Notes: generated by a model from the sequence alone, not told the origin. 64,000 bases of DNA from an uncultured Treponema sp. (GCA_946410085.1 CAMJZA010000001.1:26797-90796), one strand, 5' to 3'. Shown: positions 16,806 to 59,954, counted from the stretch's first letter. Program-made: numbers and translations.

Positions 16806-18680
16806 ATGGGTCATTTTAAGAATTTCAAGTCGGTGCTCTATTGCCCGGTGCACTGGGTAATCAACGTGAAGGAGGAGGATCTGGAAGGTCAGCTCGCCTT
16901 CTTTGAAAAGTACATCGGGGTAGACAAGGTGTACCTGGAACCCTTCCGGTCCGGGGAGCTTGCAAGCCGCGAAAAGCTCCTTGCCATCAAGGGCTTTCTG
17001 GAATCGCACGGCGTAGAGGTGGCGGGCGGCTTTACGACGACGTCGGGACCCGGTCCCATCCCCGGCAAGGAGCACAAGTCCCAGCGGCTCTTTGACACCT
17101 ACTGCTACACGGACAGGGACTTCCGTGCCGAACTGCAAAAGAACATCGAGTTCACCGCAGGCATATTCGATGAGATTATCCTCGATGACTTTTACTTTAC
17201 CAACTGCACCTGCGAGGACTGCATCAGGGCGAAGGGCAGCAGGAGCTGGCAGGAGTTCCGCCTGAACTTGATGAAGGAGGTGAGCCGGAACGTCATCGTC
17301 GGCCCGGCAAAGAAAGTCAATCCCAGGTGCAGGGTCGTCATCAAGTACCCTAACTGGATGGAAAGCTATGCGGGGGCGGGCTACAACCCCGGCGAGCAGA
17401 AGGACATCTTTGACGGCGTGTACACCGGTACCGAAACCCGCAATTCGATGGATCAGGACCAGACCCTGCCCCGCTACCTGTCGTATTCGCTCGTCCGCTG
17501 GATGGAGAACCTCGCGCCGGGACGGAACGGGGGCGGCTGGTTCGACGCCTTCCAGTGCTACCCCATGGAGGCCTACCTTGAGCAGGCATACCTGACCGCC
17601 TTTGCCCGCGCCCGCGAGCTGATGATTTTCTGCTGGCCGCTCGTCTACGACCACTACTTCGTGCCGACGCTCGGCTTCCAGATGAAGAAGATCGATGAGC
17701 TGATGAGCAGCGCCGGCGGCTGTACCGGCCTTGCCGAATACCATCCGGTCAACGCGCAGGGCGAGGACCACCTTGCCGACTACCTGGGACTTCAGGGCAT
17801 TCCCTTTGAGTCGACGCCGTATTTCCCGGAAAATGCAGAGGCGGTATTCCTGACCGCCGCCTCCTGTGCGGACAGGGACGTCATGAGCAGGCTGGAGAAA
17901 TACGTCCGTGAGGGCGGGCATGCCATCGTGACGAGCGGCTTCGTCAAGCTGATGCTGGGCGACGGCGGCGGCATCTCCCGTGCCGACGGCAGTTGTAGTC
18001 CCCGTACCGGCGGCAGCAGCACGGACGGCACATCCGCGCTGTCTGCCCTGTCCATCGAACAGATGACCTCGCTGCGCTGGCGGGACCGGCACCTTACGCC
18101 GACCCACTACCAGTACCATTCGCAAGACACCTGGGAAGAGTATAAGGTTCCGGCCGCTAAGGCGATTACGTTCCCCCTGCTGGAGCACCGCAACAACGTC
18201 AGCTGGATGCTCGTGAAGGGACAGACGGCGGGGAAGAACCTCCCCATACTCATCCGCGACTGCTACGGCAAGGGACAGCTGATTACCTTCGTCGTCCCGG
18301 ACGACTTCGGCGACATCCAGAATCTTCCCCGCGAGATACTGAACGAGCTGCGCCGGGAGTTCTGCGGTACGCTCGGACTGCGCCTTGAGTGCGGTAAGAA
18401 CGTGGGCCTCTTCCTCTACGACAACGATACGTTCATCACCTATGCCTATGACTACCAGAACGAGGGGCCGCAGCCCTGTTACGTGCACGTTGCGGGCGGG
18501 GCAAAGCGGCTGGTCCGGCTGAACGGACGGCGCGGGCTTGACTGCGTGGAGCCCTATGCAAAGGCCGACGAGGGAAGCAAAACCGGCATGGACGGCATGA
18601 ATGTCAAGGCGCAGACCGAGACCGTCTTCAAGATAGAGACGCACCCCGACCTCTTTGACTTCTGGAAAATCGAGCGCTAG
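16806..18680 (+). CDS. Cytoplasmic protein of unknown function, possibly a TIM-barrel glycoside-hydrolase-like enzyme
   Basis: 624 aa with no signal peptide. AGGAGG lies 11 nt upstream of the ATG, and the gene starts only 31 nt after the ABC ATPase stop. I recognise no confident family. Its architecture vaguely recalls GH42-like enzymes (barrel plus a GATase-like domain). Confidence 0.5.
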   Translation: MGHFKNFKSVLYCPVHWVINVKEEDLEGQLAFFEKYIGVDKVYLEPFRSGELASREKLLAIKGFLESHGVEVAGGFTTTSGPGPIPGKEHKSQRLFDTYCYTDRDFRAELQKNIEFTAGIFDEIILDDFYFTNCTCEDCIRAKGSRSWQEFRLNLMKEVSRNVIVGPAKKVNPRCRVVIKYPNWMESYAGAGYNPGEQKDIFDGVYTGTETRNSMDQDQTLPRYLSYSLVRWMENLAPGRNGGGWFDAFQCYPMEAYLEQAYLTAFARARELMIFCWPLVYDHYFVPTLGFQMKKIDELMSSAGGCTGLAEYHPVNAQGEDHLADYLGLQGIPFESTPYFPENAEAVFLTAASCADRDVMSRLEKYVREGGHAIVTSGFVKLMLGDGGGISRADGSCSPRTGGSSTDGTSALSALSIEQMTSLRWRDRHLTPTHYQYHSQDTWEEYKVPAAKAITFPLLEHRNNVSWMLVKGQTAGKNLPILIRDCYGKGQLITFVVPDDFGDIQNLPREILNELRREFCGTLGLRLECGKNVGLFLYDNDTFITYAYDYQNEGPQPCYVHVAGGAKRLVRLNGRRGLDCVEPYAKADEGSKTGMDGMNVKAQTETVFKIETHPDLFDFWKIER

Positions 18681-18692
18681 GCGTGAATTCAG

Positions 18693-18728
18693 CATCCCCT
18701 CCGAGAAAGTTTTTCTGCGGAGGGGATG
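18693..18728 (+). terminator. Long hairpin immediately after the 624-aa gene
   Basis: Perfect 11-bp outer stem CATCCCCTCCG/CGGAGGGGATG, extended by AGAAA/TTTCT. It begins 13 nt after the stop codon. Confidence 0.5.
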
Positions 18729-18760
18729 CCTGCGGCTGCGCAGGGAAAGATATGCTGGAG

Positions 18761-18898
18761 CCAGTGCAAAAGTCGGTCACTTTTGCACTGGCTTGCAAGA
18801 ATCTCAGCGGTGCTACGCACCACTTGCGATTCTTGAGGTGAATTTTGACCAGTTTCAAAAGTCCGCGGCAACAAAGTTGCCAGGGACTTTTGAAACTG
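18761..18898. repeat. Three further consecutive hairpins (REP-like structured spacer)
   Basis: CCAGTGCAAAAGT-cggtc-ACTTTTGCACTGG (18761-18791). CAAGAATC...GATTCTTG (18796-18835). CAGTTTCAAAAGTCC...GGACTTTTGAAACTG (18850-18898). Confidence 0.6.
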
Positions 18899-18931
18899 CC
18901 TCGCTGATCTGTTTGCGGTGGAAATCCTTAA

Positions 18932-19351
18932 TCAGAGATTTGCTAATTCAGAAATAAAATCTGCGGGGGAAAGAACCGGAACCTTTGCCTTTGAATAGTC
19001 TTTTTCATTCCGAGTAACGATATAATCAACGGAATTCCTGAATGCGGTCTCTGACATAACGGCATCCTCATAATCACCTATTTGTGAGGAAACTGCATTC
19101 TGGCAGTCTATACCGAGCGTATCAACGACTTCAAACAGACTGAATAATTTCCGTAAGATTTCCCTTGTCTGGCTGTCGCTGTGGGTCTGACGATGGGTAA
19201 GATAATAAATATCCGTTACGGATTTTGCGGATATACAGGCTGTGACAGTCCGCTTTGCGACTTCAATGAATATCTGCTGGGCAAAATGGGAGAATGGCCG
19301 TCTGTCCTGCAATGCGTCAATAATCACGCATGTATCCACAAGAATTTTCAT
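18932..19351 (-). CDS. vapC: PIN-domain toxin (VapC family)
   Basis: N-terminus MKILVDTCVIIDAL plus downstream acidic residues typical of PIN. It overlaps the upstream antitoxin by 4 nt. G+C is visibly lower than the flanks. Confidence 0.85.
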   Translation of the reverse strand: MKILVDTCVIIDALQDRRPFSHFAQQIFIEVAKRTVTACISAKSVTDIYYLTHRQTHSDSQTREILRKLFSLFEVVDTLGIDCQNAVSSQIGDYEDAVMSETAFRNSVDYIVTRNEKDYSKAKVPVLSPADFISELANL

Positions 19352-19563
19352 ATCCTGGCCAGCCTTTCACTTTGAGATTCTTCCAGCGTCACGTCATCCG
19401 GTAGAATTCCAAAAAGAGAGCGCGCTGTTTCAATCCTGTCTTGATTTGGGCTGGAAAGCACGGCAATTGTCCGCCCGTTTTCGGTTATGAAAACCTGCTC
19501 TTTTTCTGCCAGGGCAAGATATTTCGTGAGATTCTGCTGCAACTCTACTGCCGTTATAGCCAT
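19348..19563 (-). CDS. Type II antitoxin (Phd/YefM-like) paired with VapC
   Basis: 71 aa. AVELQQNLTKYLALAEKEQVFITENGRTIAVL is a typical Phd/YefM-type N-domain. Translationally coupled to the PIN gene. Confidence 0.75.
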   Translation of the reverse strand: MAITAVELQQNLTKYLALAEKEQVFITENGRTIAVLSSPNQDRIETARSLFGILPDDVTLEESQSERLARI

Positions 19564-19578
19564 GCATTCTCCTCCATG

Positions 19579-19593
19579 TATACTCCCAGTATA
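19579..19593. promoter_or_regulatory. Inverted repeat overlapping the putative vapB -10 (probable autoregulatory operator)
   Basis: TATACT-ccc-AGTATA is a perfect 6-bp-arm palindrome 16-30 nt upstream of the antitoxin ATG. The minus-strand TATACT doubles as a -10. Confidence 0.4.
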
Positions 19594-19631
19594 TCACACT
19601 TTTCTCTGTGTTGAAAGATGACCCTTGTTTG

Positions 19632-19660
19632 TTGCAGGCGCTGTGCGATTCTGCTAGAAT
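19632..19660 (+). promoter_or_regulatory. Sigma70-type promoter abutting the permease start codon (leaderless)
   Basis: TTGCAG, 17 nt, TAGAAT, then 6 nt to ATG 19667. No Shine-Dalgarno sequence is possible. Confidence 0.55.
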
Positions 19661-19666
19661 ATACTC

Positions 19667-20863
19667 ATGCTTGAGGACTTCCTTGACGCCCTGCAGAATT
19701 TCAGGCGCAACAGGATGCGCACCTTCCTCTCCCTGCTCGGCATCATCATCGGCGTTGCCTCGGTCATCGTCATCATGAGCATGGGCCAGTCGTCCACGCA
19801 GAAAATCAAGGATACCTTCGGTTCGGCGGGTCTGGACATGGTAAGCCTGTCCGGTGGCTTCTTCCGCAGGAGCCGGGCTGCGGTCACGATAAGCTTCGAC
19901 GAACCCTTCCGGGAAAAGCTCTTTGACAGCGTCACGGGCATTAAGAAAATCTGGTACAGGAACTCCCTTTCTGCGACGATTTCCTACGGCGAAAGCAGTG
20001 CCAGCGCTTCCTGTGCGGCGGTCGAAACCGATTACATGCGTTCCTGCGGCATTCAGCTGGAACGAGGGAAATATTTTGACGTAACCGATGACGTGATGGG
20101 AGCCCAGCGGATCATTCTGGGCAGCAGCATCGCTTCGACCCTCTTTCCCAACGGGGATGCGGTGGGAAAGCAGGTCATGCTCGTTACCGGCAATGCGCCG
20201 TTCAGCTTTACGGTGGTCGGCGTACTTAAGGAGCAGACGTCGGGCATGGAAAATACGAGCCAGGGCTGCTACATCCCCCGGGGCTTTTATGCCCGCAAGA
20301 TAAAGCCCAACCCGCCCGCCGATACCGTCATGGTACAGGCAGAAAGCGAGGCCCTTGCGGTGAGCCTGCGCGACAGGCTGGAAGCATACTGCAACAGCCT
20401 GACCGGAACGGAAGGTTCCGTATCTGCAACGTCCATGCAGACGATGATCGAACAGATGGGGTCGATTACGGGCGTCCTGAGCCTGCTGCTGGCGGTCGTG
20501 GCGGGCATATCGCTGCTGGTCGGCGGCATCGGCATCATGAACATCATGATTGTGACGGTGACCGAGCGCAGGCAGGAAATCGGCATCCGCAAGGCGCTCG
20601 GTGCCAGTCCCGCCCTCATCCGCCGCCAGTTCCTCGTAGAGTCTGCCGGCATAACCGTGATGGGCGGCCTTCTGGGCATTGTCCTGGGCATTGCGATAAG
20701 CATTGCCGTTGAGTACGTGCAGGCCGTGCAGAGCTTTGTCGTCAGCTGGACCGCCTGCCTCGTGGCCTTTGCCTTTTCCCTTTTCGTCGGCATCTTCTTC
20801 GGCCTGTCGCCTGCTTCCCGGGCCGCCCGTCTGGACCCGGTGGAAGCCCTCTCCGGGGAGTAG
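19667..20863 (+). CDS. ABC transporter permease (MacB/FtsX type)
   Basis: N-terminal TM, a large periplasmic domain, then the C-terminal FtsX 4-TM block ending ...ASRAARLDPVEALSGE, a typical family terminus. Confidence 0.9.
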   Translation: MLEDFLDALQNFRRNRMRTFLSLLGIIIGVASVIVIMSMGQSSTQKIKDTFGSAGLDMVSLSGGFFRRSRAAVTISFDEPFREKLFDSVTGIKKIWYRNSLSATISYGESSASASCAAVETDYMRSCGIQLERGKYFDVTDDVMGAQRIILGSSIASTLFPNGDAVGKQVMLVTGNAPFSFTVVGVLKEQTSGMENTSQGCYIPRGFYARKIKPNPPADTVMVQAESEALAVSLRDRLEAYCNSLTGTEGSVSATSMQTMIEQMGSITGVLSLLLAVVAGISLLVGGIGIMNIMIVTVTERRQEIGIRKALGASPALIRRQFLVESAGITVMGGLLGIVLGIAISIAVEYVQAVQSFVVSWTACLVAFAFSLFVGIFFGLSPASRAARLDPVEALSGE

Positions 20864-20865
20864 GG
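20798..20865. repeat. Direct repeat DR-A, left copy (authentic 3' end of the permease gene)
   Basis: 68 bp: TTCGGCCTGTCGCCTGCTTCCCGGGCCGCCCGTCTGGACCCGGTGGAAGCCCTCTCCGGGGAGTAGGG. Identical to 24542-24609. Confidence 0.95.
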
Positions 20866-20942
20866 GAACCGGCGGCGGTCATTGTTCCGTCAGGTGTGCC
20901 CGGACGATGTTCGGACTTTCTGTTCCATCGGAGGGAGGCTCT

Positions 20943-20971
20943 TTGACATAGCCCCCGTTTTGCTGTAAAAT
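20943..20971 (+). promoter_or_regulatory. Promoter of the glf cassette
   Basis: TTGACA, 17 nt, TAAAAT. AAGGA Shine-Dalgarno lies about 9 nt before the GTG start at 20995. Confidence 0.55.
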
Positions 20972-20994
20972 ACCCTGTCAAATAAGGATACACT

Positions 20995-22128
20995 GTGGAA
21001 CAAAGGAAATATGACCTGCTGATTGTCGGATCCGGTCTTTATGGGGCAACGTTCGCCCGGCTTGCAAAAGAGGCTGGCAAACGCTGCCTTGTAATCGAGA
21101 AACGCCCTCATACCGGCGGCAATGTCCATTGTGATTCGAAAGAAGGAATCAACATCCACAGGTACGGTGCTCATATCTTTCATACCTCCAGCAGGAAACT
21201 CTGGGATTTTGCAGGCAAATTCGTTACGTTCAACCGCTATACGAATTCACCGCTTGCAAACTACCGGGGCAGACTGTTTAACCTGCCCTTTAACATGAAC
21301 ACATTCTACGCAATGTGGGGAGTGACGACCCCTGCCGAGGCAATGGCGCGGATCCGGGAACAGCAGTCTCAGCTGACATCTGCCCCCCGGAATCTTGAGG
21401 AGCAGGCAATCGCCCTTGTCGGAAGCGACATTTACAGAATACTTGTAAAAGAGTATACGGAAAAGCAGTGGGGACGTCCCTGCACCGAGCTTCCTCCTTT
21501 CATAATACAGAGGCTTCCCGTCCGTTTTACCTTCGATAACAACTATTTCAGCGACTGTTACCAGGGTATTCCGATAGGGGGCTACAACAAGCTTACAGAC
21601 GCCTTGCTTGAGGGAACCGAGGTGATTACGGGTATTGATTTCTTTGCCGATCGTGTGCGGCTGGAGTCCCTTGCTTCTCGGCTTGTCTTTACCGGACGAA
21701 TCGACGAGTTTTTCGGCTATCAGTACGGCAGGCTCGAGTACCGCACGGTTCGTTTCGAGACGGAGACGCTGGATATGCAGAATTATCAGGGGAACGCCGT
21801 CGTCAACTTTACGAGCTGTGACGTACCCTACACGCGGATTATCGAGCACAAGCATTTCGAGCCTGAAAATCCTGCTTACAGTAGTCCGGTGACTGTCATA
21901 TCCCGGGAATACTCCTCGGAGTGGACGGATGGTGCGGAGCCGTTTTACCCGATCAACGATACCAGAAATACAGAACTTTATCAGCAGTATAAGGCTCTTG
22001 CGGACCGGCAGAGGAATGTCCTTTTTGGCGGTCGGCTTGCGGAATACAAGTACTACGATATGGATGACGTGATGGAAAAGGCGATGAATGACTTTGATGA
22101 ATTCATGAGGAGTGGAACGGAACGATGA
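20995..22128 (+). CDS. glf: UDP-galactopyranose mutase
   Basis: N-terminal FAD fold YDLLIVGSGLYGATFA, then the GGNVHCDS..GINIHRYGAHIFHTS pattern characteristic of Glf. 377 aa. Confidence 0.9.
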   Translation: MEQRKYDLLIVGSGLYGATFARLAKEAGKRCLVIEKRPHTGGNVHCDSKEGINIHRYGAHIFHTSSRKLWDFAGKFVTFNRYTNSPLANYRGRLFNLPFNMNTFYAMWGVTTPAEAMARIREQQSQLTSAPRNLEEQAIALVGSDIYRILVKEYTEKQWGRPCTELPPFIIQRLPVRFTFDNNYFSDCYQGIPIGGYNKLTDALLEGTEVITGIDFFADRVRLESLASRLVFTGRIDEFFGYQYGRLEYRTVRFETETLDMQNYQGNAVVNFTSCDVPYTRIIEHKHFEPENPAYSSPVTVISREYSSEWTDGAEPFYPINDTRNTELYQQYKALADRQRNVLFGGRLAEYKYYDMDDVMEKAMNDFDEFMRSGTER

Positions 22129-22850
22129 ACGGTGTATTATACCTTGTCCTCCCTGCATATAATGAAGAAGAGAATATAGAGGCTGTTGTCCGTTCCTGGT
22201 ATACGGTCCTTGACGGGAAGGCTGAAGAATCGCGGATAGTCATCGCAGACAGCGGGAGCAGCGACGGGACGCACGGAATACTCGAAAGGCTCTGCCAGGA
22301 GTTTCCCAAGCTCATCGTTCTGAGTTCCACAGGCCGGTATCACGGTGAGAAACTGATAGCCCTCTATGACTATGCGATACAAAACGGGGCGGAATGGATT
22401 TTTCAAACTGACTCAGACGGGCAGACTGATCCTGCCGAATTTGCTTCCTTCTGGAATATGCGGGAAGACTGTGACGGCATCTTCGGTAACAGGCACGTGC
22501 GCGGCGACGGATTCATCAGGGCGTTTGTCGAAAAGGTTGTGTGCTTCCTGCTCAGGCTTTACTTCGGCGTAAAGGTACCGGATGCAAATGCCCCTTTCAG
22601 GCTGATGCGGGCAGACATCGTGAAGAAGTACCTCTACCGGATGGATGCGGATTATAACCTGCCGAATATCATGCTGGTGACCTGGTTCGTCTATTACGGA
22701 GAGCGGTATGCGTTCAGGGAAATCTCCTTCAGGTCCCGGCAGGGCGGGGTCAACTCAATCAACATCCGCAAGATTTTCAAAATCGGCTGGAAAGCCCTCG
22801 GTGATTTCAGGAAGTTGAAGCAGGCTATGAGAGGAAATTCAAAAAAATGA
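22125..22850 (+). CDS. Family 2 glycosyltransferase
   Basis: LVLPAYNEEENI and the DxD-like TDSDGQ motif. ATGA overlap with glf. Confidence 0.85.
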   Translation: MNGVLYLVLPAYNEEENIEAVVRSWYTVLDGKAEESRIVIADSGSSDGTHGILERLCQEFPKLIVLSSTGRYHGEKLIALYDYAIQNGAEWIFQTDSDGQTDPAEFASFWNMREDCDGIFGNRHVRGDGFIRAFVEKVVCFLLRLYFGVKVPDANAPFRLMRADIVKKYLYRMDADYNLPNIMLVTWFVYYGERYAFREISFRSRQGGVNSINIRKIFKIGWKALGDFRKLKQAMRGNSKK

Positions 22851-24541
22851 GTTTGCGCATACGGTTGACGGCAAGACAGAAGTTTTTTGCAGTACTTTGC
22901 TTTGTGCTGCCGGCTGTACTTCTGTTTATTCCCGTCATTCAGAGCTTGCTTATATCTGCCGGCGGTAAAATATTAGGACGGACGCTGAATCATCCCGGGG
23001 TATGGGAAAAAAGAATCCAGCGGACTGGTTTGTACCTGCTGTGCGTTCCACTGCTGTATTTCTTCTTTTCTCTGGAGAGTCTGTTTGCCGCAGCGAAGAG
23101 AAAGTTTGTTTCGGGGACCATACGCTGTGCAGTTCTTTTGTTCTTGGCCTTTCTTACGAGCAGTCTGTTCGCCCTGTTTCCCTTTAAGGTTCAGTATCCG
23201 TGCTCGGACAGTGCCGTGTTCATCTCCATAGGCAGGATGATGCACCTTGGAAGAATTCCCTATCGGGATATATTCGATCACAAGGGAATTGTCCTCTATT
23301 TCATCGAGTATCTTGGAACCTTCGCCGGAGGCTATACCGGGGTGTATCTCATCGAGCTTGCCGGCATGTTTGCCACGGTCATCTTCATATACAAGGCGGC
23401 GGCACTTTCCTGCAGGAACGAGACCGTTTGTCTCCTGACCTCATTTTTTTCAGTTTACATGCTTGGTTCCAGAATGTATGAGGGGGCGAACCTTTCTGAG
23501 GAATATGCCTTGCCCTGTATTGCGTTCTCAAGCTATGTCTTTCTCCTGTATCTTAGGACGGGACAGTGCAGGTTCTTTGATTTCTTTTTTGTCGGACTGA
23601 CCTTTACAGCCGTCCTGCTGCTCAGGGTGAATATGGTTGCTCCCTGGGCTTTCTATGTCCCTTATTTTCTGGTAATCCTGCTGAAGGACCGGAAGTATTC
23701 CGACTTGAAAACGATGGTGGCAGGATTTGCCTGCGGGATGATCGTGCTTTTCATTCCCGTCATGGTGTATTTCCATGTAACGTCCAGCTTCCGTGCTATG
23801 TGGGAGACCTATGTTCTGTTCAATCTTATGTATGTCTCCGACGAGGGGGAACTGCGGAATGTGCTCGGCGTCATGCGGATGTTTGTCAGCGTATTCGCCT
23901 TTCCCTGTATCTGCCAGTTTGCGGCAGTCCTGCAGCAGGGAAAGGACAGGTATCACGTTATCAACGCGCTTGTTTTCCTTGTGACCCTGCTCTCCGTGTC
24001 TGTCTCCGGGAGGGCTTATCCGCACTACGGAATCATTCTGCTTCCCCTCTGTGTTCTACCCGTTGCGTACGTTCTTGAAAAATTGCGGGAGAACCTGTCA
24101 CTTTGCGCCGGTGTGACAGCGGCTCTTGTTTCGCGGTTCTGTCTGTCTCTCCTGATTCTGATTCCCCTGCTGGGCCTTCCCAATCCGATGAAGCCGGGCA
24201 GGATTTGGCAGGACTCTATCGTGCGATACCTTCGGAAAGAGACAGCTCCCGACTCTGATGTGCTTGTTCTGGCTAATGAGGCTAAGTATTATATCGCTGC
24301 GGAACGTTACACCAGGCAACGGTTCCTGTTTCAGGAGCCTGTCATACGGCAGGATTCTGCGCTGATGAGGGAGTTTGAGGAAGGCGTACGGGCGAATCCT
24401 CCTGACTATATTGTGCTGTCGGGCTACCACTGGAACTGGCTCCATATGCCGCTTCTTTCCGGTATCAGGGAGTTTCTGGACGCATCCTACAGCAGGGTGG
24501 ATTTCCCGGAGGGCATCGTATTCAGAAAGGACAGGGAGTGA
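22847..24541 (+). CDS. Polytopic membrane protein, probable GT-C-like glycosyltransferase or polymerase (GtrC analogue)
   Basis: 564 aa with about 12 hydrophobic helices followed by a ~100-aa soluble C-terminus. ATGA overlap with the GT2 gene. No confident family recognised. Confidence 0.5.
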   Translation: MSLRIRLTARQKFFAVLCFVLPAVLLFIPVIQSLLISAGGKILGRTLNHPGVWEKRIQRTGLYLLCVPLLYFFFSLESLFAAAKRKFVSGTIRCAVLLFLAFLTSSLFALFPFKVQYPCSDSAVFISIGRMMHLGRIPYRDIFDHKGIVLYFIEYLGTFAGGYTGVYLIELAGMFATVIFIYKAAALSCRNETVCLLTSFFSVYMLGSRMYEGANLSEEYALPCIAFSSYVFLLYLRTGQCRFFDFFFVGLTFTAVLLLRVNMVAPWAFYVPYFLVILLKDRKYSDLKTMVAGFACGMIVLFIPVMVYFHVTSSFRAMWETYVLFNLMYVSDEGELRNVLGVMRMFVSVFAFPCICQFAAVLQQGKDRYHVINALVFLVTLLSVSVSGRAYPHYGIILLPLCVLPVAYVLEKLRENLSLCAGVTAALVSRFCLSLLILIPLLGLPNPMKPGRIWQDSIVRYLRKETAPDSDVLVLANEAKYYIAAERYTRQRFLFQEPVIRQDSALMREFEEGVRANPPDYIVLSGYHWNWLHMPLLSGIREFLDASYSRVDFPEGIVFRKDRE

Positions 24542-24609
24542 TTCGGCCTGTCGCCTGCTTCCCGGGCCGCCCGTCTGGACCCGGTGGAAGCCCTCTCCGG
24601 GGAGTAGGG
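24542..24609. repeat. Direct repeat DR-A, right copy (non-coding duplicate of the permease 3' end)
   Basis: Starts 1 nt after the cassette's last stop codon. 68/68 identical to 20798-20865. Confidence 0.95.
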
Positions 24610-24630
24610 CCCGTAAACGCCGCGCACCCT

Positions 24631-24784
24631 GCGCATAGACTATGGGGCCTGTGCACATAGACTATGGGGCGTGTGCGCATAGACTACGGGGCCTGTGCGC
24701 ATAGACTATGGGGCCTGTGCGCATAGACTACGGGGCCCCTGCACATAGACTATGGGGCCCCTGCACATAGACTATGGGGCCCCT
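24631..24784. repeat. Seven tandem copies of a 22-bp unit
   Basis: Consensus GCGCATAGACTATGGGGCCTGT. Unit starts: 24631, 24653, 24675, 24697, 24719, 24741, 24763. Each unit contains the small palindrome ATAG-A-CTAT. The last three units end CCCT instead of CTGT. Confidence 0.95.
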
Positions 24785-24823
24785 GCTGTAATTTTGGCGG
24801 GGGCGGCCTGTTTTCTTAACAGT

Positions 24824-27385
24824 ATGCAGCAAACTGCCGATTATCAAGATATGCGAAAATTTATCTCAAAATATACTGCACCGCTTGCAGGAGGCAGCTT
24901 TTCCTGCAGCGGCAGAATACACAAAATCATCATTTTTCTTCTATATATATGTCTCTCGGCTGCCGTCTGGACGGGCGGAGCCTTTGCCCAGACCAAGCCC
25001 CTGTACCGGCTGCCCTCGGGCATTCCGAGCAACATCAAGGCCGTTCCGGAAGGCGAGCCGCTCATCATCGGCTGCGACGACGGCCTGTACAGACTCCTTT
25101 CTTCCGGGAGCAGGCAGGCAGTCTGGACGGGCGGCTCGGTAACCCAGATCCTCCGCACGGCACACTGCTGGTACCTGCTCGGCGACCGGGGCGTCGTCAA
25201 GTCTACCGACCTCGTGACCTTTCAGGAGTGCAACGAGGGCCTTCCTTTCCTCACGGTCAAAAGCTATGACGGCGAAAACAAGACCCTCATCCGGCAGGTG
25301 CAGATCCTCAAGGACATCTGCGCCGACCCCTTTGACGAGAATGTCCTCGTGACGGCGACCAAGGACGCCGTGTACCTGTCCCGTGACGGAGCGGCGAGCT
25401 GGGTCTCCCTGGGGTCAACGAGCCGCTATACGCCGGGAATCAAGGCGGTTGCCTGTTCCCGCATGAAGACCTACAACAAGGCGGGCGAGGTAACCGGCAG
25501 CGAGCTCGTTGTCTTCATGGCGCACTCAATCTACGGCTTTTCCTATTACCGGGCGGACGCTGCCCGGCCCGCATGGATTGACGTGTCCGCCGGTTTTGCA
25601 ATTATGCCGAGCCTGTCCCAGACTGACGAAATGAGCGACATCCTGCCCGTCGTGGTGCAGGACGGGGACGGGAACCGCTATGCCGACATCTATGTGGCAA
25701 ACTCCTACCTGCCCAACATCTACCGCTTTGACTGGGAAAGCAAGCGGGCGGTGACCGTGTACAAGGGTAAGGAGGCCGCCGACACGATTGACGGCCTGTG
25801 CCAGAGCAACGGACAGCTGGTGTTTTCGACCGTGGGAAGCGTTGCCGCCCTTTCGCTCGACTCCGGTACGCTTGCGGAACTGCCGCCTGCGGGCAGGACC
25901 TGGCTTTCCCTCCTCCGTTCGGCGGGAACGGTGAATGCCGCCTACGTTCCTGCCGCAGCGAGCGGATTCGGGACTGCCCTGCAGCTTGCCGAACTCTGGC
26001 TTTTGACCCCTGACCGGCCCCAGACCGAATACGGGGGCGCGGCGAACGGGAAAAAGGCCCTGTATGCCTCTGCCTACCAGCTGCGGAATGCGGCAGGCAT
26101 AGAAAAATACAAGCGGCTTTCAAAGGCGAATGGCCTGAACGCCCTCGTCGTGGACATGAAGGATGACTACGGCCTGCTCCGCTTTCAGCCGGAAAGCGAG
26201 CTGCTCAAGGCGAAGGGCTCGGTTACGATGTACAAGATTGACGTGGAAAACTTCGTCCGCGAGATGAAGCAGGAAGGCATCTACCTCATTGCCCGCATCG
26301 TCGTGTTCAAGGACAAGAACCTCGCTTCCTACGGGGGCGGCAAGTACGCGGCCTGGGACTGGCGGAACAAGAAGCCCTGGGTGGGCGTGCGCGGCGAGGA
26401 GGACGTGCTGGACGAACAGGGGAACGTCATGCGGGACGAGCAGGGCAATCCCCTGCCCAAGAAGACGGTCTACTATGACGAGAACTGGGTAGACCCCTAC
26501 AGCGAGGAAGTCTGGCAGTACAACATCGAGATTGCGCGGGAGCTGATAGCACGGGGCTTCGATGAAATTCAGTTTGACTACATCCGCTTCCCGACTGACG
26601 GCAAGAATATGGAAAACATCTCCTTCCGCTGGAAGGATGAGGGAATGGACAAGGAGAGCGCCCTGCTTTCCTTCCTGCGCTATGCGCGGGCGAACATTCA
26701 GGCCCCGATCGGCATAGACATTTACGGGGCAAACGGCTGGTACCGGTCCGGCACGCGGACGGGGCAGGACGTGGAGCTGTTCTGCAACTACGTGGACGTC
26801 GTGTGCCCCATGTTCTACCCCTCGCACTTTGAGCAGGACTTCATGGAATACAAGCCGGTCAAGGAGCGGCCCTACCGCATCTACTTCTTCGGGTCCTACC
26901 GCAATACGGTTTCTGCCCGCAACCGGATGATTGTTCGCCCCTGGGTGCAGGCCTTTTACATGGGCGTGCGCTATGACCGGCTGAACTACGACAAGGACTA
27001 TGTGCGCCGGGAGATTTTCGGCGTGCGCGATGCGCTCAACCGGGGCTACATGTACTGGAACAATTCGGGCGGCGACTACGGGGATATCAGCCCGGACATC
27101 ACGGACGACGAGCTGTCGCCCTGGTATGCGGACGAGGCTGCCCTGCAGACCCGCCTGCCGGCCTTCAGTTCCGGTCCGGGGGCGTCCGCCCGGAAGAAGG
27201 GGGAAGAGGGCAGTTCCTTTGCCGCCGGGGAAAGGCCGGACGCGCTGATGACCCACAGGCAGGACATGATTTCGATCCTGAACTCCCTGCTGGACAAGGA
27301 GTACGAGCCGGAAGGCAGCGTCTTCGGTTCAGCCCCCGGCCGCCTGCTGCGCGTCCTGCCGCTTGACCTCTTCGGCCTCCAGTAG
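24824..27385 (+). CDS. Secreted protein with an Asp-box beta-propeller-like N-domain and a DUF4015-type putative glycoside hydrolase TIM barrel
   Basis: Signal peptide KIIIFLLYICLSAAVWTGGAFAQ. Asp-box SRDGAASW. The C-terminal half (NALVVDMKDDYG...IARIVVFKD...WVDPYSEEVWQYNIEIARELIARGFDEIQFDYIRFP) is typical of DUF4015. The ORF-track start at 24752 lies inside the repeats, so I moved it to ATG 24824 (24851 is also possible). Confidence 0.75.
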   Translation: MQQTADYQDMRKFISKYTAPLAGGSFSCSGRIHKIIIFLLYICLSAAVWTGGAFAQTKPLYRLPSGIPSNIKAVPEGEPLIIGCDDGLYRLLSSGSRQAVWTGGSVTQILRTAHCWYLLGDRGVVKSTDLVTFQECNEGLPFLTVKSYDGENKTLIRQVQILKDICADPFDENVLVTATKDAVYLSRDGAASWVSLGSTSRYTPGIKAVACSRMKTYNKAGEVTGSELVVFMAHSIYGFSYYRADAARPAWIDVSAGFAIMPSLSQTDEMSDILPVVVQDGDGNRYADIYVANSYLPNIYRFDWESKRAVTVYKGKEAADTIDGLCQSNGQLVFSTVGSVAALSLDSGTLAELPPAGRTWLSLLRSAGTVNAAYVPAAASGFGTALQLAELWLLTPDRPQTEYGGAANGKKALYASAYQLRNAAGIEKYKRLSKANGLNALVVDMKDDYGLLRFQPESELLKAKGSVTMYKIDVENFVREMKQEGIYLIARIVVFKDKNLASYGGGKYAAWDWRNKKPWVGVRGEEDVLDEQGNVMRDEQGNPLPKKTVYYDENWVDPYSEEVWQYNIEIARELIARGFDEIQFDYIRFPTDGKNMENISFRWKDEGMDKESALLSFLRYARANIQAPIGIDIYGANGWYRSGTRTGQDVELFCNYVDVVCPMFYPSHFEQDFMEYKPVKERPYRIYFFGSYRNTVSARNRMIVRPWVQAFYMGVRYDRLNYDKDYVRREIFGVRDALNRGYMYWNNSGGDYGDISPDITDDELSPWYADEAALQTRLPAFSSGPGASARKKGEEGSSFAAGERPDALMTHRQDMISILNSLLDKEYEPEGSVFGSAPGRLLRVLPLDLFGLQ

Positions 27386-27894: not shown

Positions 27895-29967
27895 ATGAAA
27901 AAAATTGTTGCCGGTTCAACGGCCGTGCTTCTGATGCTCACGGCTTCCGGGGCCCTGATAGGCTGTAAGTCAACCCCCGATGAGTCTACTTCATCGTCGG
28001 ACTCATCCCTTGAATCGACGTCCAGTGTCGATTCCGCCGGGGCGGATGCTGATTTTGACATTGACGGGGAGGAGCGTGAGACCGACTCCTCCGGTGAGGG
28101 TGATGACGCGGAGGCGCCTGACGGTGACGCTGCCGCCGAGGGCAGCGGTGAAACTGCCCGGGAGGGGGCGCAGTCATGGATTACCTCTGACGGTACGGCT
28201 TCTTCCAACCGCGAAGACGAAAAGAAGGAAGGCGGATTCGGCAATTCCTACGGCCTCGCTTCGGGCGAAGGCGTGAACGGGGACGGTGTTGCAGTGATGA
28301 AGGGCGGTGAGGCCGGTGAGGTCGACACGAGTGCTTCCGGCAGCGCCCCGAACGATGAGGAGAACTTTCCTTCTACGATGGAACGGCTCAAGAATGCCGG
28401 CAAGGGTTCAGCGTCTTCCGACGGAACAGAGGCTGACGGTGACGGGGCGGATGCTTCTGCCGGGGCGGGCACGGAGACTGCATCCGCAGAGAGCGGCGGA
28501 AGCCGGCAGAGTGCCGTTGCGCCCAATGCAAACGACAGCAGTACGGCCGGTCTGGGTGACCGGTCAAAGAATAATTCCGGCAGCGGTGCGGGCACCGGAA
28601 CCGGCGGCTCTGCTTCCGGGTCCGGGGCGGACGGAACTTCGGGCGGCAGTGCAAAGAACGGTAATGCAAAGAATAATGGGAGCGGTATTTCCGGTACGTC
28701 CAGCATAGACGGTTCCCGCAATGCCAATCCGACGGTGGCAAAGCCGCAGGCGGAGTCGCGGACGGGAAACAAGAACGACAAGAGTTCCGGTGCGAACGGC
28801 TCGGGCACGGGTTCGGCGGCACAGAACGGTACAAACAAGAACGGCACGGGCTCCGGCAGCGGCTCCGGCGCACAGAACGGAAACAAGAACGGCACGGGCT
28901 CCGGCAGCGGCTCCGGCGCACAGAACGGAAACAAGAACGGCACGGGGGCAGGAACAGGCTCCGGGACCGGTAAAAACGGCACGGGGACTGCTTCGGCGAA
29001 TTCCGGGTCGAATACGAACGCTTCCGGGACTGGGAATACGACTGCCCAGAACGGGACGAATAAGAACGCTTCCGGCAACGGCGGTAACGGTACCGGTACA
29101 AACGCTTCCGGCACGAATGCCAACGGGAACGGGAACGGCAGGAATGCCGGGTCCGGCACGAACGGTACTGCTGGCGCTTCCGGCAATGGGGCAGGCAATG
29201 CGTCCGGGAAGGATGCTTCTGCGTCATCTGCTTCGAAGGGAACGAATACGGGAAAAGAAATTGCGAAGGCCGACGGAACTTCCGGCGGGGCGGGGATTTC
29301 CACGAACGGGAGCGGGGATGCGGAATCGGGCTCGGGTAACGGCGGCAAGGCCGGTAACGGTGCCGGCGGAACAGCGGCGAAGGACCGGCAGGGGATGACC
29401 GGCGACGGCACGACCGATTACGTTGAAAAGTTCAGCAAGTGGTTCCATCCGGCGCTTGCAGACGTCCAGCGCTGCGGCTATTTCTATACGACGCCGGAAA
29501 TCTGCCAGTTCGACATGATACAGGGCGACTTCCGCAAGGTGTCGGGATACAAGAAGGCGGCCTACGGCTTCGTCTTCGGCTACAGCCAGCCCGACCCGCG
29601 CGGCTACCTGTCCGACTACATCCGCTTTGAAATCAACGTTGACGGGGAATATGCCCTCTATACTTGGGACGGCCAGAACTACGTGGACCTGGTGGAGCCG
29701 AATGACCGGGGAACGGCGTATTTCTATGAGCACCCTGCAATCTACAAGGGCTACAACACGCTCAACCAGATTAAGATAGAGGACACGGGCTCTTCCTACA
29801 ATGTCTACGTGAACGGCACGCTGATACAGGGCAATATTCCCTACCTGACCGGCCGGGCGACCAGGGGCGTCATGGCCTTCTTCTCGGTTGCAAAGGAGCA
29901 CCAGGAAGATCTGCCCAGGACGCCGGTCAACGTGGGCATGCGGATTACGGACGTAAAGCGGCACTAA
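27895..29967 (+). CDS. Lipoprotein with a ~430-aa G/S/N/T/A-rich disordered region and a ~180-aa globular C-terminal domain
   Basis: Lipobox LTASGALIGC. Long low-complexity region with GTGSGSGSGAQNGNKN repeats. The C-terminal beta-rich domain (YGFVFGY...IRFEINVDGEYALYTWDG...YNVYVNGTLI) suggests a lectin/jelly-roll-like fold. Confidence 0.75.
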   Translation: MKKIVAGSTAVLLMLTASGALIGCKSTPDESTSSSDSSLESTSSVDSAGADADFDIDGEERETDSSGEGDDAEAPDGDAAAEGSGETAREGAQSWITSDGTASSNREDEKKEGGFGNSYGLASGEGVNGDGVAVMKGGEAGEVDTSASGSAPNDEENFPSTMERLKNAGKGSASSDGTEADGDGADASAGAGTETASAESGGSRQSAVAPNANDSSTAGLGDRSKNNSGSGAGTGTGGSASGSGADGTSGGSAKNGNAKNNGSGISGTSSIDGSRNANPTVAKPQAESRTGNKNDKSSGANGSGTGSAAQNGTNKNGTGSGSGSGAQNGNKNGTGSGSGSGAQNGNKNGTGAGTGSGTGKNGTGTASANSGSNTNASGTGNTTAQNGTNKNASGNGGNGTGTNASGTNANGNGNGRNAGSGTNGTAGASGNGAGNASGKDASASSASKGTNTGKEIAKADGTSGGAGISTNGSGDAESGSGNGGKAGNGAGGTAAKDRQGMTGDGTTDYVEKFSKWFHPALADVQRCGYFYTTPEICQFDMIQGDFRKVSGYKKAAYGFVFGYSQPDPRGYLSDYIRFEINVDGEYALYTWDGQNYVDLVEPNDRGTAYFYEHPAIYKGYNTLNQIKIEDTGSSYNVYVNGTLIQGNIPYLTGRATRGVMAFFSVAKEHQEDLPRTPVNVGMRITDVKRH
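28843..28938 (+). repeat. Perfect 48-bp tandem duplication inside the lipoprotein gene
   Basis: GGCACGGGCTCCGGCAGCGGCTCCGGCGCACAGAACGGAAACAAGAAC occurs at 28843-28890 and 28891-28938. Degenerate copies lie on both sides. Confidence 0.9.
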
Positions 29968-30989: not shown

Positions 30990-31118
30990 GCCGGGCAAAA
31001 AAACACTCTTTTTCCGAAATTTTTTTTCATTACATGTACATTCCTGTCAGTTCTCCGCAATACATACGGTGAAGACTTTGAAGAGCAGGAAGCTCAGGAG
31101 CGCACGGGACGCCGCAGG

Positions 31119-31205
31119 ACGCAGTGCGTTACGGGACACGCTGTGCCGCCGGGCGCAGTGCGTTACGGGATGCGCTGTGCCGTCAGGCGCAGTCCGTCCG
31201 CAGGA
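31119..31205. repeat. About 2.5 tandem copies of a 34-bp unit
   Basis: GCAGTGCGTTACGGGA(C/T)(A/G)CGCTGTGCCG(C/T)C(G/A)GGC recurs with a period of 34 (31121, 31155, and a degenerate copy at 31189). Confidence 0.8.
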
Positions 31206-44011: not shown

Positions 44012-44701
44012 ATGAAAGTTTTAGTTATCGTTCCCGCATTCAATGAGGCACTGAACATTCAGAAAATGCTCTGCCGTCTGGCACAGGAAGCTCCGCATGC
44101 CGACTATGTGGTCATAAATGACTGTTCCACGGACAATACTGAGGAAATTCTGAAGGAAAACGGCTTGCATTATATTTCTCTCCCCGTGAATCTCGGCATA
44201 GGGGGCGGGATACAGACCGGATATAAGTATGGCGTCGAAAAGGGCTACGACATCATCATTCAGCAGGATGGTGACGGCCAGCATGACCCGAAGTATATAA
44301 AGGATGTCTGCGCCCCCATCGAACAGGGGGAAGCCGATATCGTCATCGGCAGCCGCTTCATCAACAGGGAAGGCTTCCAGTCAAGCGGAATCCGCCGTCT
44401 GGGCATACGGTTCCTGAGCCGGCTGGTCAGGCTGAAATGCGGGACGGTCATAAAGGATGTCACCAGCGGATACCGGGCCGTCAGCCGCAGGTATGCAGGC
44501 TTTTTTGCCGCTCATTATCCGGCTGACTATCCTGAACCGGAAGCGATTGTTTCTGCGTCGCTTGCGGGGGCACGGATACGGGAAGTGCCGGTCATCATGA
44601 AAAGCAGGGAGTTCGGTTCAAGTTCAATAAACCTGAGGAGGTCGGTGTATTATATGATAAAAGTGTCCCTGGCAATCCTCCTCTGCAGGAAAGAGTCGTG
44701 A
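44012..44701 (+). CDS. Family 2 glycosyltransferase (polyprenyl-phosphate sugar synthase-like)
   Basis: VIVPAFNEALNI, INDCSTDNT and QQDGDGQHDP motifs. Confidence 0.85.
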   Translation: MKVLVIVPAFNEALNIQKMLCRLAQEAPHADYVVINDCSTDNTEEILKENGLHYISLPVNLGIGGGIQTGYKYGVEKGYDIIIQQDGDGQHDPKYIKDVCAPIEQGEADIVIGSRFINREGFQSSGIRRLGIRFLSRLVRLKCGTVIKDVTSGYRAVSRRYAGFFAAHYPADYPEPEAIVSASLAGARIREVPVIMKSREFGSSSINLRRSVYYMIKVSLAILLCRKES

Positions 44702-44702
44702 A

Positions 44703-45071
44703 ATGACGGAAAAGCTGCGTTTTTTCGTGAGCATCGGGATAGTCCTGTATTTTATGCTGCTCGGCATGCTGATCCGGAAGCGGAGCATTTCCCTGCGCTA
44801 TGCCCTTCTGTGGGGGGTCCTGGGGATTGTGTTCATCCTGCTGGATGTATTCCCGAACCTGCTCTATACGATCTGCAGTATCCTGGGGGTGCAGACGCCT
44901 GTGTTCGGCCTGTATGCCGTATTCATCCTGCTGATTTTCGTCGTGCTCATTGTCCTGACGGGCATCATTTCCCGTCAGGCGGAAAAGATACGGACCCTCG
45001 CACAGACTGCGGCGCTGCTGGAGAAGCGGATGCGGGAACTGGAGGCCGCACCGGAGTCTCAGCAGCCTTGA
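44703..45071 (+). CDS. Small membrane protein, DUF2304-like
   Basis: 122 aa with 4 hydrophobic helices. The position immediately after a GT2 gene is the usual DUF2304 context. Confidence 0.6.
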   Translation: MTEKLRFFVSIGIVLYFMLLGMLIRKRSISLRYALLWGVLGIVFILLDVFPNLLYTICSILGVQTPVFGLYAVFILLIFVVLIVLTGIISRQAEKIRTLAQTAALLEKRMRELEAAPESQQP

Positions 45072-45168
45072 GCGTGCCGTGGCGGTAGCCTTGAGCGTAC
45101 CGTGGCGGTTGCCTTGAAGCTGCGCTGGCGGTAGCCTTGAGCGTGCCGTGGCGGTTGCCTTGACACTG
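45064..45168. repeat. About 4.5 tandem copies of a 23-bp unit
   Basis: AGCCTTGAGCGTGCCGTGGCGGT. Unit starts at 45064, 45087, 45110, 45133 and 45156 (partial). The first unit overlaps the DUF2304 stop codon. The last supplies the TTGACA -35. Confidence 0.95.
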
Positions 45169-45188
45169 AAAAAGCTTGCCTGTACACT
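45160..45188 (+). promoter_or_regulatory. Promoter abutting the start codon of the membrane protein gene (leaderless)
   Basis: TTGACA, 17 nt, TACACT, then 6 nt to ATG 45195. Confidence 0.55.
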
Positions 45189-45194
45189 TGTCCC

Positions 45195-48448: not shown

Positions 48449-49120
48449 ATGAGGGTAAAAAGAGCTGTTCTCACGGTCATGCTTTCCGTAATCGTCCTGA
48501 CGGGCCTGTTCTGCGTGGGCGTGAACCTGTATGTGATTGCATACGCCCGTCCCTACGTCTACCGGGACGTGGAATCCCTTCCTTCCCGGTATACGGTCAT
48601 TCTTCCCGGCGCGAAGGTCTACCGCAATACGGTTTCCCATGTCGTTGCCGACCGTATTGAAGGCACGCTCCGCTGCATTCAGGCGGGCAAGGCCGAGCGC
48701 ATCCTTGTTTCCGGTGATCACGGGAGGCGGGACTATGACGAGGTGAACCAGATACTTGCCTACATGCAGCGGGTCTACGGGACTGACGACAGCATCATCT
48801 TTCTGGATCATGCGGGCTTTTCCACCTACGAGACGGTCTACCGGGCGCGCGACGTGTTCTGCGTGAAGGATGCAATCATCGTGACCCAGAAGTTCCACGT
48901 GTACCGGGCGGTCTACATTGCCCGCAGGCTCGGCCTGGACGCCGTTGCCCTCGAAGCTCCGGAACTGTACCCTTATGCGCGGACCATGCGCGACAGCTGG
49001 GAACTGCGGGAGTTCTTTGCACGGGTCAAGGCCTTTTTGTATGTGGCCTTTGGCGTCCGCCCCACCTACCTCGGCGAACAGATTCCCATCACCGGCGACC
49101 CCGCGGCGAGCCGGGACTGA
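48449..49120 (+). CDS. SanA/YdcF-family (DUF218) membrane protein
   Basis: N-terminal TM, then ILVSGDHGRRDYDEVN..FLDHAGFSTYETVYRA..IVTQKFHVYRAVYIARRLG, typical of SanA. Confidence 0.8.
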   Translation: MRVKRAVLTVMLSVIVLTGLFCVGVNLYVIAYARPYVYRDVESLPSRYTVILPGAKVYRNTVSHVVADRIEGTLRCIQAGKAERILVSGDHGRRDYDEVNQILAYMQRVYGTDDSIIFLDHAGFSTYETVYRARDVFCVKDAIIVTQKFHVYRAVYIARRLGLDAVALEAPELYPYARTMRDSWELREFFARVKAFLYVAFGVRPTYLGEQIPITGDPAASRD

Positions 49121-49139
49121 GTTCCGCTGCGGGCAGGAA
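49093..49139. repeat. Direct repeat DR-B, left copy (authentic 3' end of the sanA-like gene)
   Basis: CGGCGACCCCGCGGCGAGCCGGGACTGAGTTCCGCTGCGGGCAGGAA. 46/47 identical to 51891-51937. Confidence 0.9.
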
Positions 49140-49342
49140 GTGAGTTCCGCTGCGGGCAGGAAGGGGGCCCTGCGCTGCAGGCAGGAAGTGAGCTTTTTGA
49201 CCGGCCCGTGGTACAACGCGGGGGCTAGTAATTGTCTGTGTTCTGTGATATAGTTATATGCCTGTAATTCTTTAGCTGACAGGGCTTTTGCGGATTACAG
49301 GCCGTAAGCAGTATCGATTTTATTTTGGGCAGAAGTGTATAC

Positions 49343-51842: not shown

Positions 51843-51890
51843 GGGGACCGGCGGCCACGCTGCTGGCAGGAACTGAACTCTGCTGCGAGT

Positions 51891-51937
51891 CGGCGACCCC
51901 GCTGCGAGCCGGGACTGAGTTCCGCTGCGGGCAGGAA
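51891..51937. repeat. Direct repeat DR-B, right copy
   Basis: CGGCGACCCCGCTGCGAGCCGGGACTGAGTTCCGCTGCGGGCAGGAA. The single difference (G to T) is synonymous in the sanA reading frame (GDPAASRD-stop). Confidence 0.9.
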
Positions 51938-58122: not shown

Positions 58123-58205
58123 AAAGGTTTGGTCACGTGAAGCTTAAACGTTTGGTCGTGTGAAGCTTAAACGTTTGGTCGTGTGAAGCTTAAACGTTTG
58201 GTCAT
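58123..58205. repeat. About 3.5 tandem copies of a 23-bp unit upstream of parA
   Basis: AAA(G/C)GTTTGGTC(A/G)(C/T)GTGAAGCTT at 58123, 58146 and 58169, with a partial copy at 58192. The first unit carries the palindrome TCACGTGA. Confidence 0.95.
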
Positions 58206-59932: not shown

Positions 59933-59954
59933 ATCTCGGATTATACAGTTTCTT

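Follow-up and report, generated by a model that had tools for sequence, protein, structure and literature searches.

A 64,000-nucleotide (nt) stretch of the genome of an uncultured Treponema sp. (GCA_946410085.1, CAMJZA010000001.1:26797-90796), hereafter the window, carries a three-gene cassette that is present in some strains of its species and absent to the exact base from others. The cassette lies between two identical copies of a 68-nt sequence, termed R, at the end of an efflux permease gene. It encodes a uridine diphosphate (UDP)-galactopyranose mutase (Glf), a family 2 glycosyltransferase (GT2), and a polytopic membrane protein of the Ccs4_N family that is predicted to be a glycosyltransferase of the GT-C fold. 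The filled and empty alleles represent a real gain/loss polymorphism of a putative surface-glycan module within the species. In our view, the cassette is probably a horizontally acquired operon with its own promoter and a Gtr-like function in galactofuranose (Galf) transfer, which was inserted once, with duplication of a 68-bp target and no dedicated recombinase.

Two features of the cassette are unusual, namely its make-up of Glf together with a Ccs4-family protein and the long, recombinase-free target duplication. The base-exact alleles document variation of what would be a surface glycan in a gut spirochaete species, and differences of this kind probably influence phage adsorption and recognition by the host. 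If the functional proposal is correct, it extends three-component extracytoplasmic glycosylation to Galf and would suggest a first biochemical role, that of a glycosyltransferase, for the Ccs4 family, which includes a virulence-associated protein of pneumococci. A 68-bp target duplication without a recombinase is an unusual scar, although an explanation would be worth seeking only if further cases came to light. As far as the evidence goes, this is a single event in one uncultured lineage, and its general significance is modest.

The repeat, the cassette boundaries and the empty sites

R is present in exactly two copies in the whole window, at 20798–20865 (R1) and 24542–24609 (R2), both on the plus strand, as determined by repeat finding and by a search allowing 3 mismatches. 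The two copies are 100% identical, whereas the number expected by chance is 0 (100 shuffles). R1 consists of the last 63 nt of the open reading frame (ORF) of a MacB/FtsX-type efflux permease (19667–20863, plus strand, 398 residues; Pfam MacB_PCD 9e-30 and FtsX 7.9e-19), its TAG, and a further GG. The permease ORF, the last gene of a conserved operon, stays intact and ends in ...FGLSPASRAARLDPVEALSGE*. R2 is non-coding in its present position and abuts the last cassette gene, its first base directly following the TGA (24539–24541) of a 564-residue ORF. The gap between the copies is 3676 bp, and the distance from start to start is 3744 bp. A preliminary description, made from the sequence alone, had reported the perfect 68-bp direct repeat, with its second copy beginning one nucleotide past the stop codon of the last cassette gene, and both statements hold. 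R2 is also in frame with that gene (24539–24609), and read-through of the TGA would add the last 21 residues of the permease; with a chance of 1 in 3, this match of frames is probably a coincidence.

The same description placed the insertion at the stop codon of the permease gene. The structure at the permease end is as it stated, but the stop codon is only one placement of the event among several, because a break anywhere in the 68 bp, or a join 63 nt inside the gene, gives the same structure.

Contigs of the same species were found through the 90%-identity cluster of the permease. In four of them (L085, L086, L093, and L091), the permease gene is followed directly by the DUF4015 gene that lies downstream of R2 in the window, without the cassette. 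In a fifth (L094), a single R is followed by the native intergenic sequence. Each contig has exactly one R, identical to that of the window in L085, L086, L093, and L094 and with 3 single-nucleotide polymorphisms (SNPs) in L091. The permease of L085 and L086 differs from that of the window by 1 residue, and the flanks of these two contigs share 95–98% DNA identity with the window, compared with 93–97% for L093 and 86–95% for L091. Moreover, L085 and L086 share with the window the same 244-nt intergenic region, and a blastn alignment of L085 with the window gives two aligned blocks that overlap by exactly the 68 bp of R. Two further contigs, from metagenome-assembled genomes (MAGs) at NCBI, list the permease and the DUF4015 protein under consecutive accessions and, at 5162 and 4418 bp, are too short for the cassette. 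Loss of the cassette together with one R copy, by deletion between the repeats, would yield exactly the empty allele observed, down to the base, and the R pair is therefore a real route to precise loss of the cassette.

In L094, the permease, R, and ~2–3 units of a tandem array native to the site are followed, in the region from 11320, by unrelated DNA with small domainless ORFs, an ankyrin-repeat protein, a CHAT domain, and pheT. Either the locus is rearranged here or two sequences were joined chimerically at the tandem array.

The base composition of the cassette differs from that of its surroundings. Its G+C content is 0.510, against ~0.60 in the flanks, and it falls at the 2.6th percentile of sliding windows of the same size (mean 0.570, standard deviation 0.027). 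G+C at third codon positions is 0.59–0.64 in the cassette and 0.75–0.82 in the neighboring pump and DUF4015 genes. The preliminary description had remarked on a lower G+C content than in the permease gene and had read the cassette as acquired. It had further named what would speak against acquisition, that is, the lack of any cassette-free junction and a composition like that of the flanks. Cassette-free junctions are present in six sister contigs, plus L094, and the composition is distinct; both results agree with an accessory, compositionally foreign glycan cassette.

Insertion route, stability and age

We propose that the cassette entered the chromosome of one rumen-type Treponema lineage, between a MacAB-type efflux operon and the DUF4015 gene, in a single event that would have duplicated 68 bp of the target. 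The R repeat would be the scar of this insertion, its left copy preserving the reading frame of the permease. Candidates for the founding event are fill-in of a staggered break, a template switch re-entering 68 nt upstream, and a single crossover of an R-bearing circle. The presence/absence allele would then have been inherited vertically and spread between strains by homologous recombination in the conserved flanks. Precise loss could occur by RecA-type recombination or by slippage between the 68-mers, probably at a low rate.

A one-off insertion with target duplication is the most likely route. No recombinase, inverted repeats, hairpin in R, or second use of the site in 86 loci was found. 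Integrase and transposase domains are absent from the ~30 ORFs of the 64-kb window that were scanned, and repeat finding detected no terminal inverted repeats at the ends of the insert. R has no excess of hairpin or attC-like folding over shuffled sequences on either strand (z 0.37–0.70). In none of 86 Treponema permease loci does a second copy of the locus's own permease 3' end occur within up to 10 kb. A transposon is disfavored by the lack of a transposase and of inverted repeats and by the length of the duplication, 68 bp being far beyond transposon target duplications. An integron cassette is likewise disfavored by the lack of an attC-like fold in R and by the presence of a promoter and three genes.

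The main rival is a non-autonomous site-specific element, similar to cis-mobilizable elements (CIMEs) or to pseudo-staphylococcal cassette chromosome (pseudo-SCC) elements. Here, the 68-mers would be attL and attR, and an integrase would act in trans from an integrative and conjugative element (ICE), an integrative and mobilizable element (IME), or a prophage; the cassette would bring a spare gene end, so that the target permease stays intact. It is indeed a hallmark of such elements that their direct repeats derive from a conserved gene's 3' end and leave that gene restored, and both the clean boundaries on either side and the linkage to R in three diverged haplotypes (see below) fit this explanation. 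We nevertheless regard it as unlikely. No integrase was found in the ORFs scanned, and the site is not reused in the 86 Treponema loci. Both R copies are the allele of the local strain and not a diverged copy brought by an element. Homologous modules in other contexts (L082 and L083) have no flanking direct repeats. No related cassette was found on phages or plasmids either: one viral contig matched at 24% identity, no phage matched, and plasmids gave only glf fragments of 64–68% identity.

As for the proposed one-time insertion, the persistence of the cassette can be judged from other samples. At ~99% identity, the cassette is also present in Logan assemblies from no fewer than five other sequencing runs, reached through cluster members of the cassette proteins. 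One contig (L081) is 100% identical to the window cassette, L087 and L088 carry the same 30 SNPs relative to it (0.94%), and L089, a contig seen in five samples, and L090 differ by 0.90% and 0.49%, respectively. L087 and L089 share 8 of ~28 SNPs, and there are consequently at least three cassette haplotypes, 0.5–1.4% apart. The first base of L089 and L090 is window position 20836, and the last of L087 is 24571, in each case exactly 30 nt inside R; as the Logan graph has k = 31, we take such breaks to be expected at a repeat. R flanks the cassette on either side in haplotypes that have diverged, and the two are stably linked over ~1% divergence. A 3.7-kb circle would need a replicon to last over such a span, which leaves integration as the only plausible stable state.

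These haplotypes also bear on a possible assembly artefact, in which the chromosome has an empty site and the cassette, residing on another molecule or at another locus, was joined to it through the 68-bp repeat. Such a join is conceivable in that 68 bp exceeds the k-mer size of some assemblers, the k = 31 Logan contigs cannot tell an integrated copy from a circle, and one contig alone spans both junctions. It is, however, barely credible: a circle without a replicon could not have been maintained in three haplotypes with R at both ends, the cassette contigs end in the permease allele of R that this species has, and the cassette promoter together with the native terminator forms a coherent integrated unit.

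Regarding age, the preliminary description took the perfect identity of the repeats as a sign of a recent event. This conclusion is unsupported by the sequences compared here. R is equally identical in strains whose permease gene has diverged by 1.3–3.4%, and its identity says little about age because a diversity of 0.5–1.4% predicts less than one difference in 68 bp. When the strains are ordered by flank identity (window, L085/L086 at 98.7%, L093 at 95.6–96.6%, and L091 at 90–95%), all except the window are empty, and one gain appears more parsimonious than three precise losses.

Alternatively, the cassette could be ancestral to the species and have been lost precisely several times, the empty alleles being derived. 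Precise deletion would leave sites that look just like the empty ones observed, and the divergence of up to 1.4% among cassette haplotypes also fits this history. It would nonetheless require the cassette to have been lost precisely, and independently, three times or more (in the L085/L086, L093, and L091 lineages), as opposed to one gain. The difference in G+C content (0.51 vs 0.60) shows no amelioration to the host composition, and more distant species (L001–L004) lack both the cassette and a second copy of the gene end. We therefore hold an ancestral cassette to be decidedly unlikely.

The preliminary description had also raised a population-level on/off switch, in which frequent and reversible recombination between the 68-mers would produce mixed glycan phenotypes within a strain. 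Perfect direct repeats whose recombination product equals the observed empty allele would suit such a switch, and a cassette diversity similar to the divergence of neighboring genes leaves room for repeated loss. Yet an excised 3.7-kb circle with no replication or integration function would make loss irreversible, which amounts to decay and not to a switch; in addition, 68 bp is a poor substrate for RecA, and the retention of the cassette through ~1% divergence in three haplotypes favors stability. A switch is thus highly improbable.

Several observations weigh against the single, recombinase-free insertion that we prefer. We know of no bacterial insertion mechanism that routinely yields a 68-bp target duplication. 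On the right, the insert ends precisely with the stop codon of its last gene, and such tidiness is surprising for an illegitimate join. Both junctions are spanned only by the contig of the window, all other cassette contigs breaking in R. Finally, cassette haplotypes are up to 1.4% apart, roughly as far as the adjacent genes of the window have diverged from those of the nearest empty strains (1.3%), and repeated precise loss therefore has to be kept in view.

Further searches gave neither a donor nor an independent junction. Look-ups of the exact products found no record for the permease, Glf, or the GT-C protein, and the one for the GT2 gave a contig internal to the cassette. A metagenome scan with 26 nt of R had no match, and one with the GT-C protein returned only relatives of ≤40% identity and no donor. 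An independent right-junction contig was sought through near-identical DUF4015 proteins, but both contigs obtained begin inside the 22-bp array of the downstream flank.

The three genes and their putative function

The content of the 3676 bp listed in the preliminary description (a promoter, glf, a GT2 gene, a gene for a 564-residue membrane protein, and ATGA overlaps) was confirmed by the sequence and by profile matches. All features are on the plus strand. The cassette begins with a 129-nt leader (20866–20994) that contains a weak terminator-like hairpin (20900–20914) and a sigma-70-like promoter, TTGACA-17-TAAAAT, at 20943–20971, which has 11 of 12 consensus positions in a consensus scan. 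L089 and L090, two independent contigs of the cassette, carry this leader at 100% identity, and no homologous sequence was found in any other fetched locus, including the region downstream of the permease in other species. Both gene junctions (glf/GT2 and GT2/GT-C) read as ATGA start/stop overlaps.

The first gene, glf (20995–22128), starts with GTG and encodes 377 residues. Its product passes the TIGR00031 equivalog model with 388.6 bits (cutoff 303.75; residues 5–371) and matches PF03275 (5.7e-76) as well as NAD_binding_8. The closest named Glf homologs, with 83% identity, come from Treponema sp. MAGs, and the source of the cassette is for this reason probably within the genus Treponema.

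The second gene (22125–22850) encodes a GT2 of 241 residues (PF00535, 4.9e-14), in which no membrane anchor was found. It falls in the neighborhood of the polyprenyl-phosphate glycosyltransferases ArnC, GtrB, and PpgS. The nearest solved proteins are ArnC (5.9e-9) and GtrB sll0501 (1.4e-7), but the best NCBIfam matches (ArnC, PgfS, and PpgS) reach only 18–35 bits, far under the cutoffs of 370–529.

The third gene (22847–24541) encodes the 564-residue polytopic membrane protein. The family was assigned from precomputed annotations, which list PF27757 (Competence-induced_Ccs4_N) for the window protein and for 19 of 22 listed homologs. An AlphaFold model based on 20 homologs has a predicted local distance difference test (pLDDT) value of 83.6 and a predicted template modeling score (pTM) of 0.81. 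All 17 PDB matches found with Foldseek at E ≤ 1e-3 are GT-C enzymes (STT3/OST, ArnT, DPY19, AglB, AftA, and PglB). The top matches have E values of 8e-7 to 2e-4, ArnT (5f15) aligns with template modeling scores of 0.56/0.58, and AftA and Emb are among the fold matches. In an alignment of homologs, a DS...D.FDHKG motif in the first loop is conserved, and the C-terminus is full length.

From these assignments, we infer the sugar, the lipid carrier, and the acceptor, just as the mode of insertion is inferred above. Glf would make UDP-Galf, the anchor-less, ArnC/GtrB-like GT2 would load Galf onto polyprenyl phosphate, and the Ccs4-family GT-C protein would move it to a glycan at the outer face of the cytoplasmic membrane. 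The net effect would be a Gtr-like three-component decoration that alters the surface glycan of carrier strains. L082 and L083 also contain the trio, in unrelated surroundings, and there Glf and GT2 share 73–82% identity with those of the window, as opposed to 39–61% for the GT-C protein; a conserved Glf and GT2 next to a fast-diverging GT-C is the pattern of Gtr systems. A few distant members of the Ccs4 family adjoin glf and a GT2 gene, but most do not.

Two weak points count against the Gtr-like function. Only three ORFs are present in the cassette, and none encodes a flippase of the small GtrA type with four transmembrane segments or of the Wzx type. Moreover, the matches of the GT2 are below the thresholds of the polyprenyl-phosphate families, and this enzyme could instead use a cytoplasmic glycan acceptor. 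Tentatively, Glf, GT2, and the Ccs4-family GT-C protein may constitute an as yet undescribed Gtr-like pathway that delivers Galf through polyprenyl phosphate and that also moves as a minimal, recombinase-free cassette with a spare target-gene end. No description of a lipid-phosphate-Galf donor was found in the literature searched.

Several other genes of the window and of related loci resemble parts of the trio. A GT2 fused to a GtrA_DPMS_TM domain is encoded at 49325–50479 and might provide the flippase activity missing from the cassette. Within 44012–47180, a low-G+C gene for a 229-residue GT2, which shares 25% identity with that of the cassette, precedes one for a 661-residue membrane protein. 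The latter (45195–47180) was considered as a paralog of the GT-C protein and rejected, as the two share only a 30-residue N-terminal motif (E = 0.011). A 629-residue "Glf" entry (P0075) proved to be an unrelated duplicated Glf and not an ORF spanning the junction. In two other Treponema species (L035, 11183–12286; L037, 5452–6522), a glf of 58% identity lies beside the same permease gene, convergent to it and overlapping its end. It is not a related cassette, being a solitary gene followed by queF and queC.

Neighboring features and comparison with known systems

The efflux operon of this lineage comprises genes for a TP096X_N-family protein, an HlyD-like protein, an ABC ATPase, a glycoside hydrolase (GH)-like protein, and the permease. 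A protein-guided scan with one genome per species, nearly all of them rumen or gut Treponema MAGs, showed that the order TP096X_N, HlyD-like, ABC ATPase, and permease is conserved in 80 Treponema loci. The best of these have 88–91% protein and 81–84% DNA identity across the permease gene and thus belong to other species. None of the 80 has the cassette or the DUF4015 gene, and their synteny with the window ends at the permease stop codon. The 624-residue GH-like gene (16806–18680; precomputed GH_cat and SSO3021_2nd domains), located between the ABC ATPase and permease genes, is confined to the closest relatives of the window, the ATPase and permease genes being adjacent in most of the 80 loci.

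A second indel is present at the same permease gene. A 971-bp insert of low G+C content (0.46) at 18682–19652, between the GH-like and permease genes, encodes a PIN_3 toxin (18932–19351, minus strand, 3.4e-22) and, upstream of the toxin, a Phd-like antitoxin. It is edged by GCTAG microhomology, is absent in the same-species contigs L085, L086, L091, and L093, and is present in another species (L003).

Downstream of the cassette, a tandem array of seven 22-bp units (TGCGCATAGACTATGGGGCCTG; 24630–24781, plus strand) begins 21 nt past R2. This array, missed in the preliminary description, is part of the site and not of the cassette and is also found in the empty-site strains. It has 7 copies in the window, 7 in L085 (8262–8411), 6 in L086 (2721–2848), 3 in L093 (11221–11282), and 2 in L094, and several assemblies (L092, L163, and L164) break inside it. 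The array ends in a terminator-like hairpin with a T-run (24779–24804, plus strand; 10 pairs, of which 7 are G–C), detected in a consensus scan, which presumably terminates the pump operon in the empty allele and the cassette in the window. An Rfam scan of 20600–25000 gave one chance-level match only. The right conserved flank is the DUF4015 gene (24851–27385, plus strand), which encodes a putative glycosyl hydrolase of 844 residues (PF13200, 2.9e-84). This reading agrees with the gene calls of sister strains; an identical product is on record, and cluster members differ by 1–3 residues.

Other intergenic tandem arrays are distributed over the window. Those with 23-bp units lie at 45064–45163, 49118–49192, and 58115–58209, and others have units of 42 bp (51849–51929), 34 bp (31111–31197), and 33 bp (59953–60051). 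Their unit sequences differ, except for a motif common to the arrays at 49118 and 51849, and several adjoin glycosyltransferase genes. Such arrays look like a genome-wide feature, possibly regulatory spacing or copy-number-variable repeats. An in-frame 48-bp tandem repeat (28819–28946; 2.6 copies, two of them perfect) lies in an ORF for a 690-residue protein (27895–29967) with no known domains, whose orthologs vary by strain (623, 657, and 682 residues). Lastly, a 102-nt direct repeat of 85% identity (61848–61949 and 63680–63781) brackets a minus-strand AAA-ATPase_like/PDDEXK_9 gene (61962–63710). A copy with 74% DNA identity is found upstream of the efflux operon in L093 (3130–4722) and L094 but not in the window, which suggests that this gene is mobile or multi-copy.

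The systems closest to the proposed function are the three-component periplasmic glycosylation modules, such as gtrABC for O-antigen glucosylation in Shigella and Salmonella phages and gmlABC in Klebsiella (PMC11127046; for Gtr-type systems, see also PMC10821137). The cassette resembles gtrABC and gmlABC in combining a GT2, here one that may be related to polyprenyl-phosphate-sugar synthases, with a (here predicted) GT-C transferase in one small operon, and in being accessory, strain-variable, and horizontally moved. In both cases, the GT2 is conserved and the GT-C protein diverges fast (81–74% vs 61–39% between the modules compared here). The cassette differs from them by its glf, so that the sugar would be Galf and not glucose or galactopyranose, by the lack of a GtrA flippase gene and of a C-terminal membrane anchor in the GT2, by the lack of an adjoining phage integrase or att site, and by a GT-C protein from the uncharacterized Ccs4 family. 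Three-component systems for the extracytoplasmic addition of pentofuranoses have also been reported (Kelly et al. 2024, PMC11127046). As in these systems and in the mycobacterial arabinofuranosyltransferases AftA and Emb, which depend on decaprenylphosphoryl arabinose (DPA), the proposed pathway would use a furanose, a lipid-phosphate donor, and an extracytoplasmic GT-C enzyme. However, the pentofuranose and DPA systems charge the lipid from phosphoribosyl pyrophosphate by a phosphoribosyltransferase and a phosphatase, whereas a UDP-sugar mutase and a GT2 would do so here.

With respect to mobility, pseudo-SCC elements are att-flanked islands without a recombinase of their own. In the cassette, as in these elements and in CIMEs, the cargo is located at the 3' end of a conserved gene that stays intact, the flanking direct repeats contain this gene end, and no integrase is encoded inside. 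Unlike in both, no cognate integrase or parent ICE is known, and the site is not reused in 86 loci. CIMEs keep attL and attR but lack the genes for integration and transfer (PMC6323972). In contrast to CIMEs, the 68-bp repeat is perfect and of the local allele, and a single operon of 3.7 kb is much smaller than is typical of such elements. The minimal mobile elements of Neisseria, strain-variable islets between conserved genes that move by transformation and flank homology, offer another parallel, as they have alternative contents between two conserved genes and no mobility genes; spread by recombination in the flanks is plausible here as well. Unlike this cassette, those islets have no long target duplication, and natural transformation is not established for this Treponema.

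As to the third protein of the cassette, Ccs4 of Streptococcus pneumoniae is a competence-induced membrane protein with 8–10 passes, no known motifs, and an unknown biochemical function (PMC6177246). Like Ccs4, the 564-residue protein and its relatives belong to PF27757 and are polytopic membrane proteins. Unlike Ccs4 as described, the cassette member yields a model with the fold of GT-C glycosyltransferases, and its gene is linked to those for Glf and a GT2.

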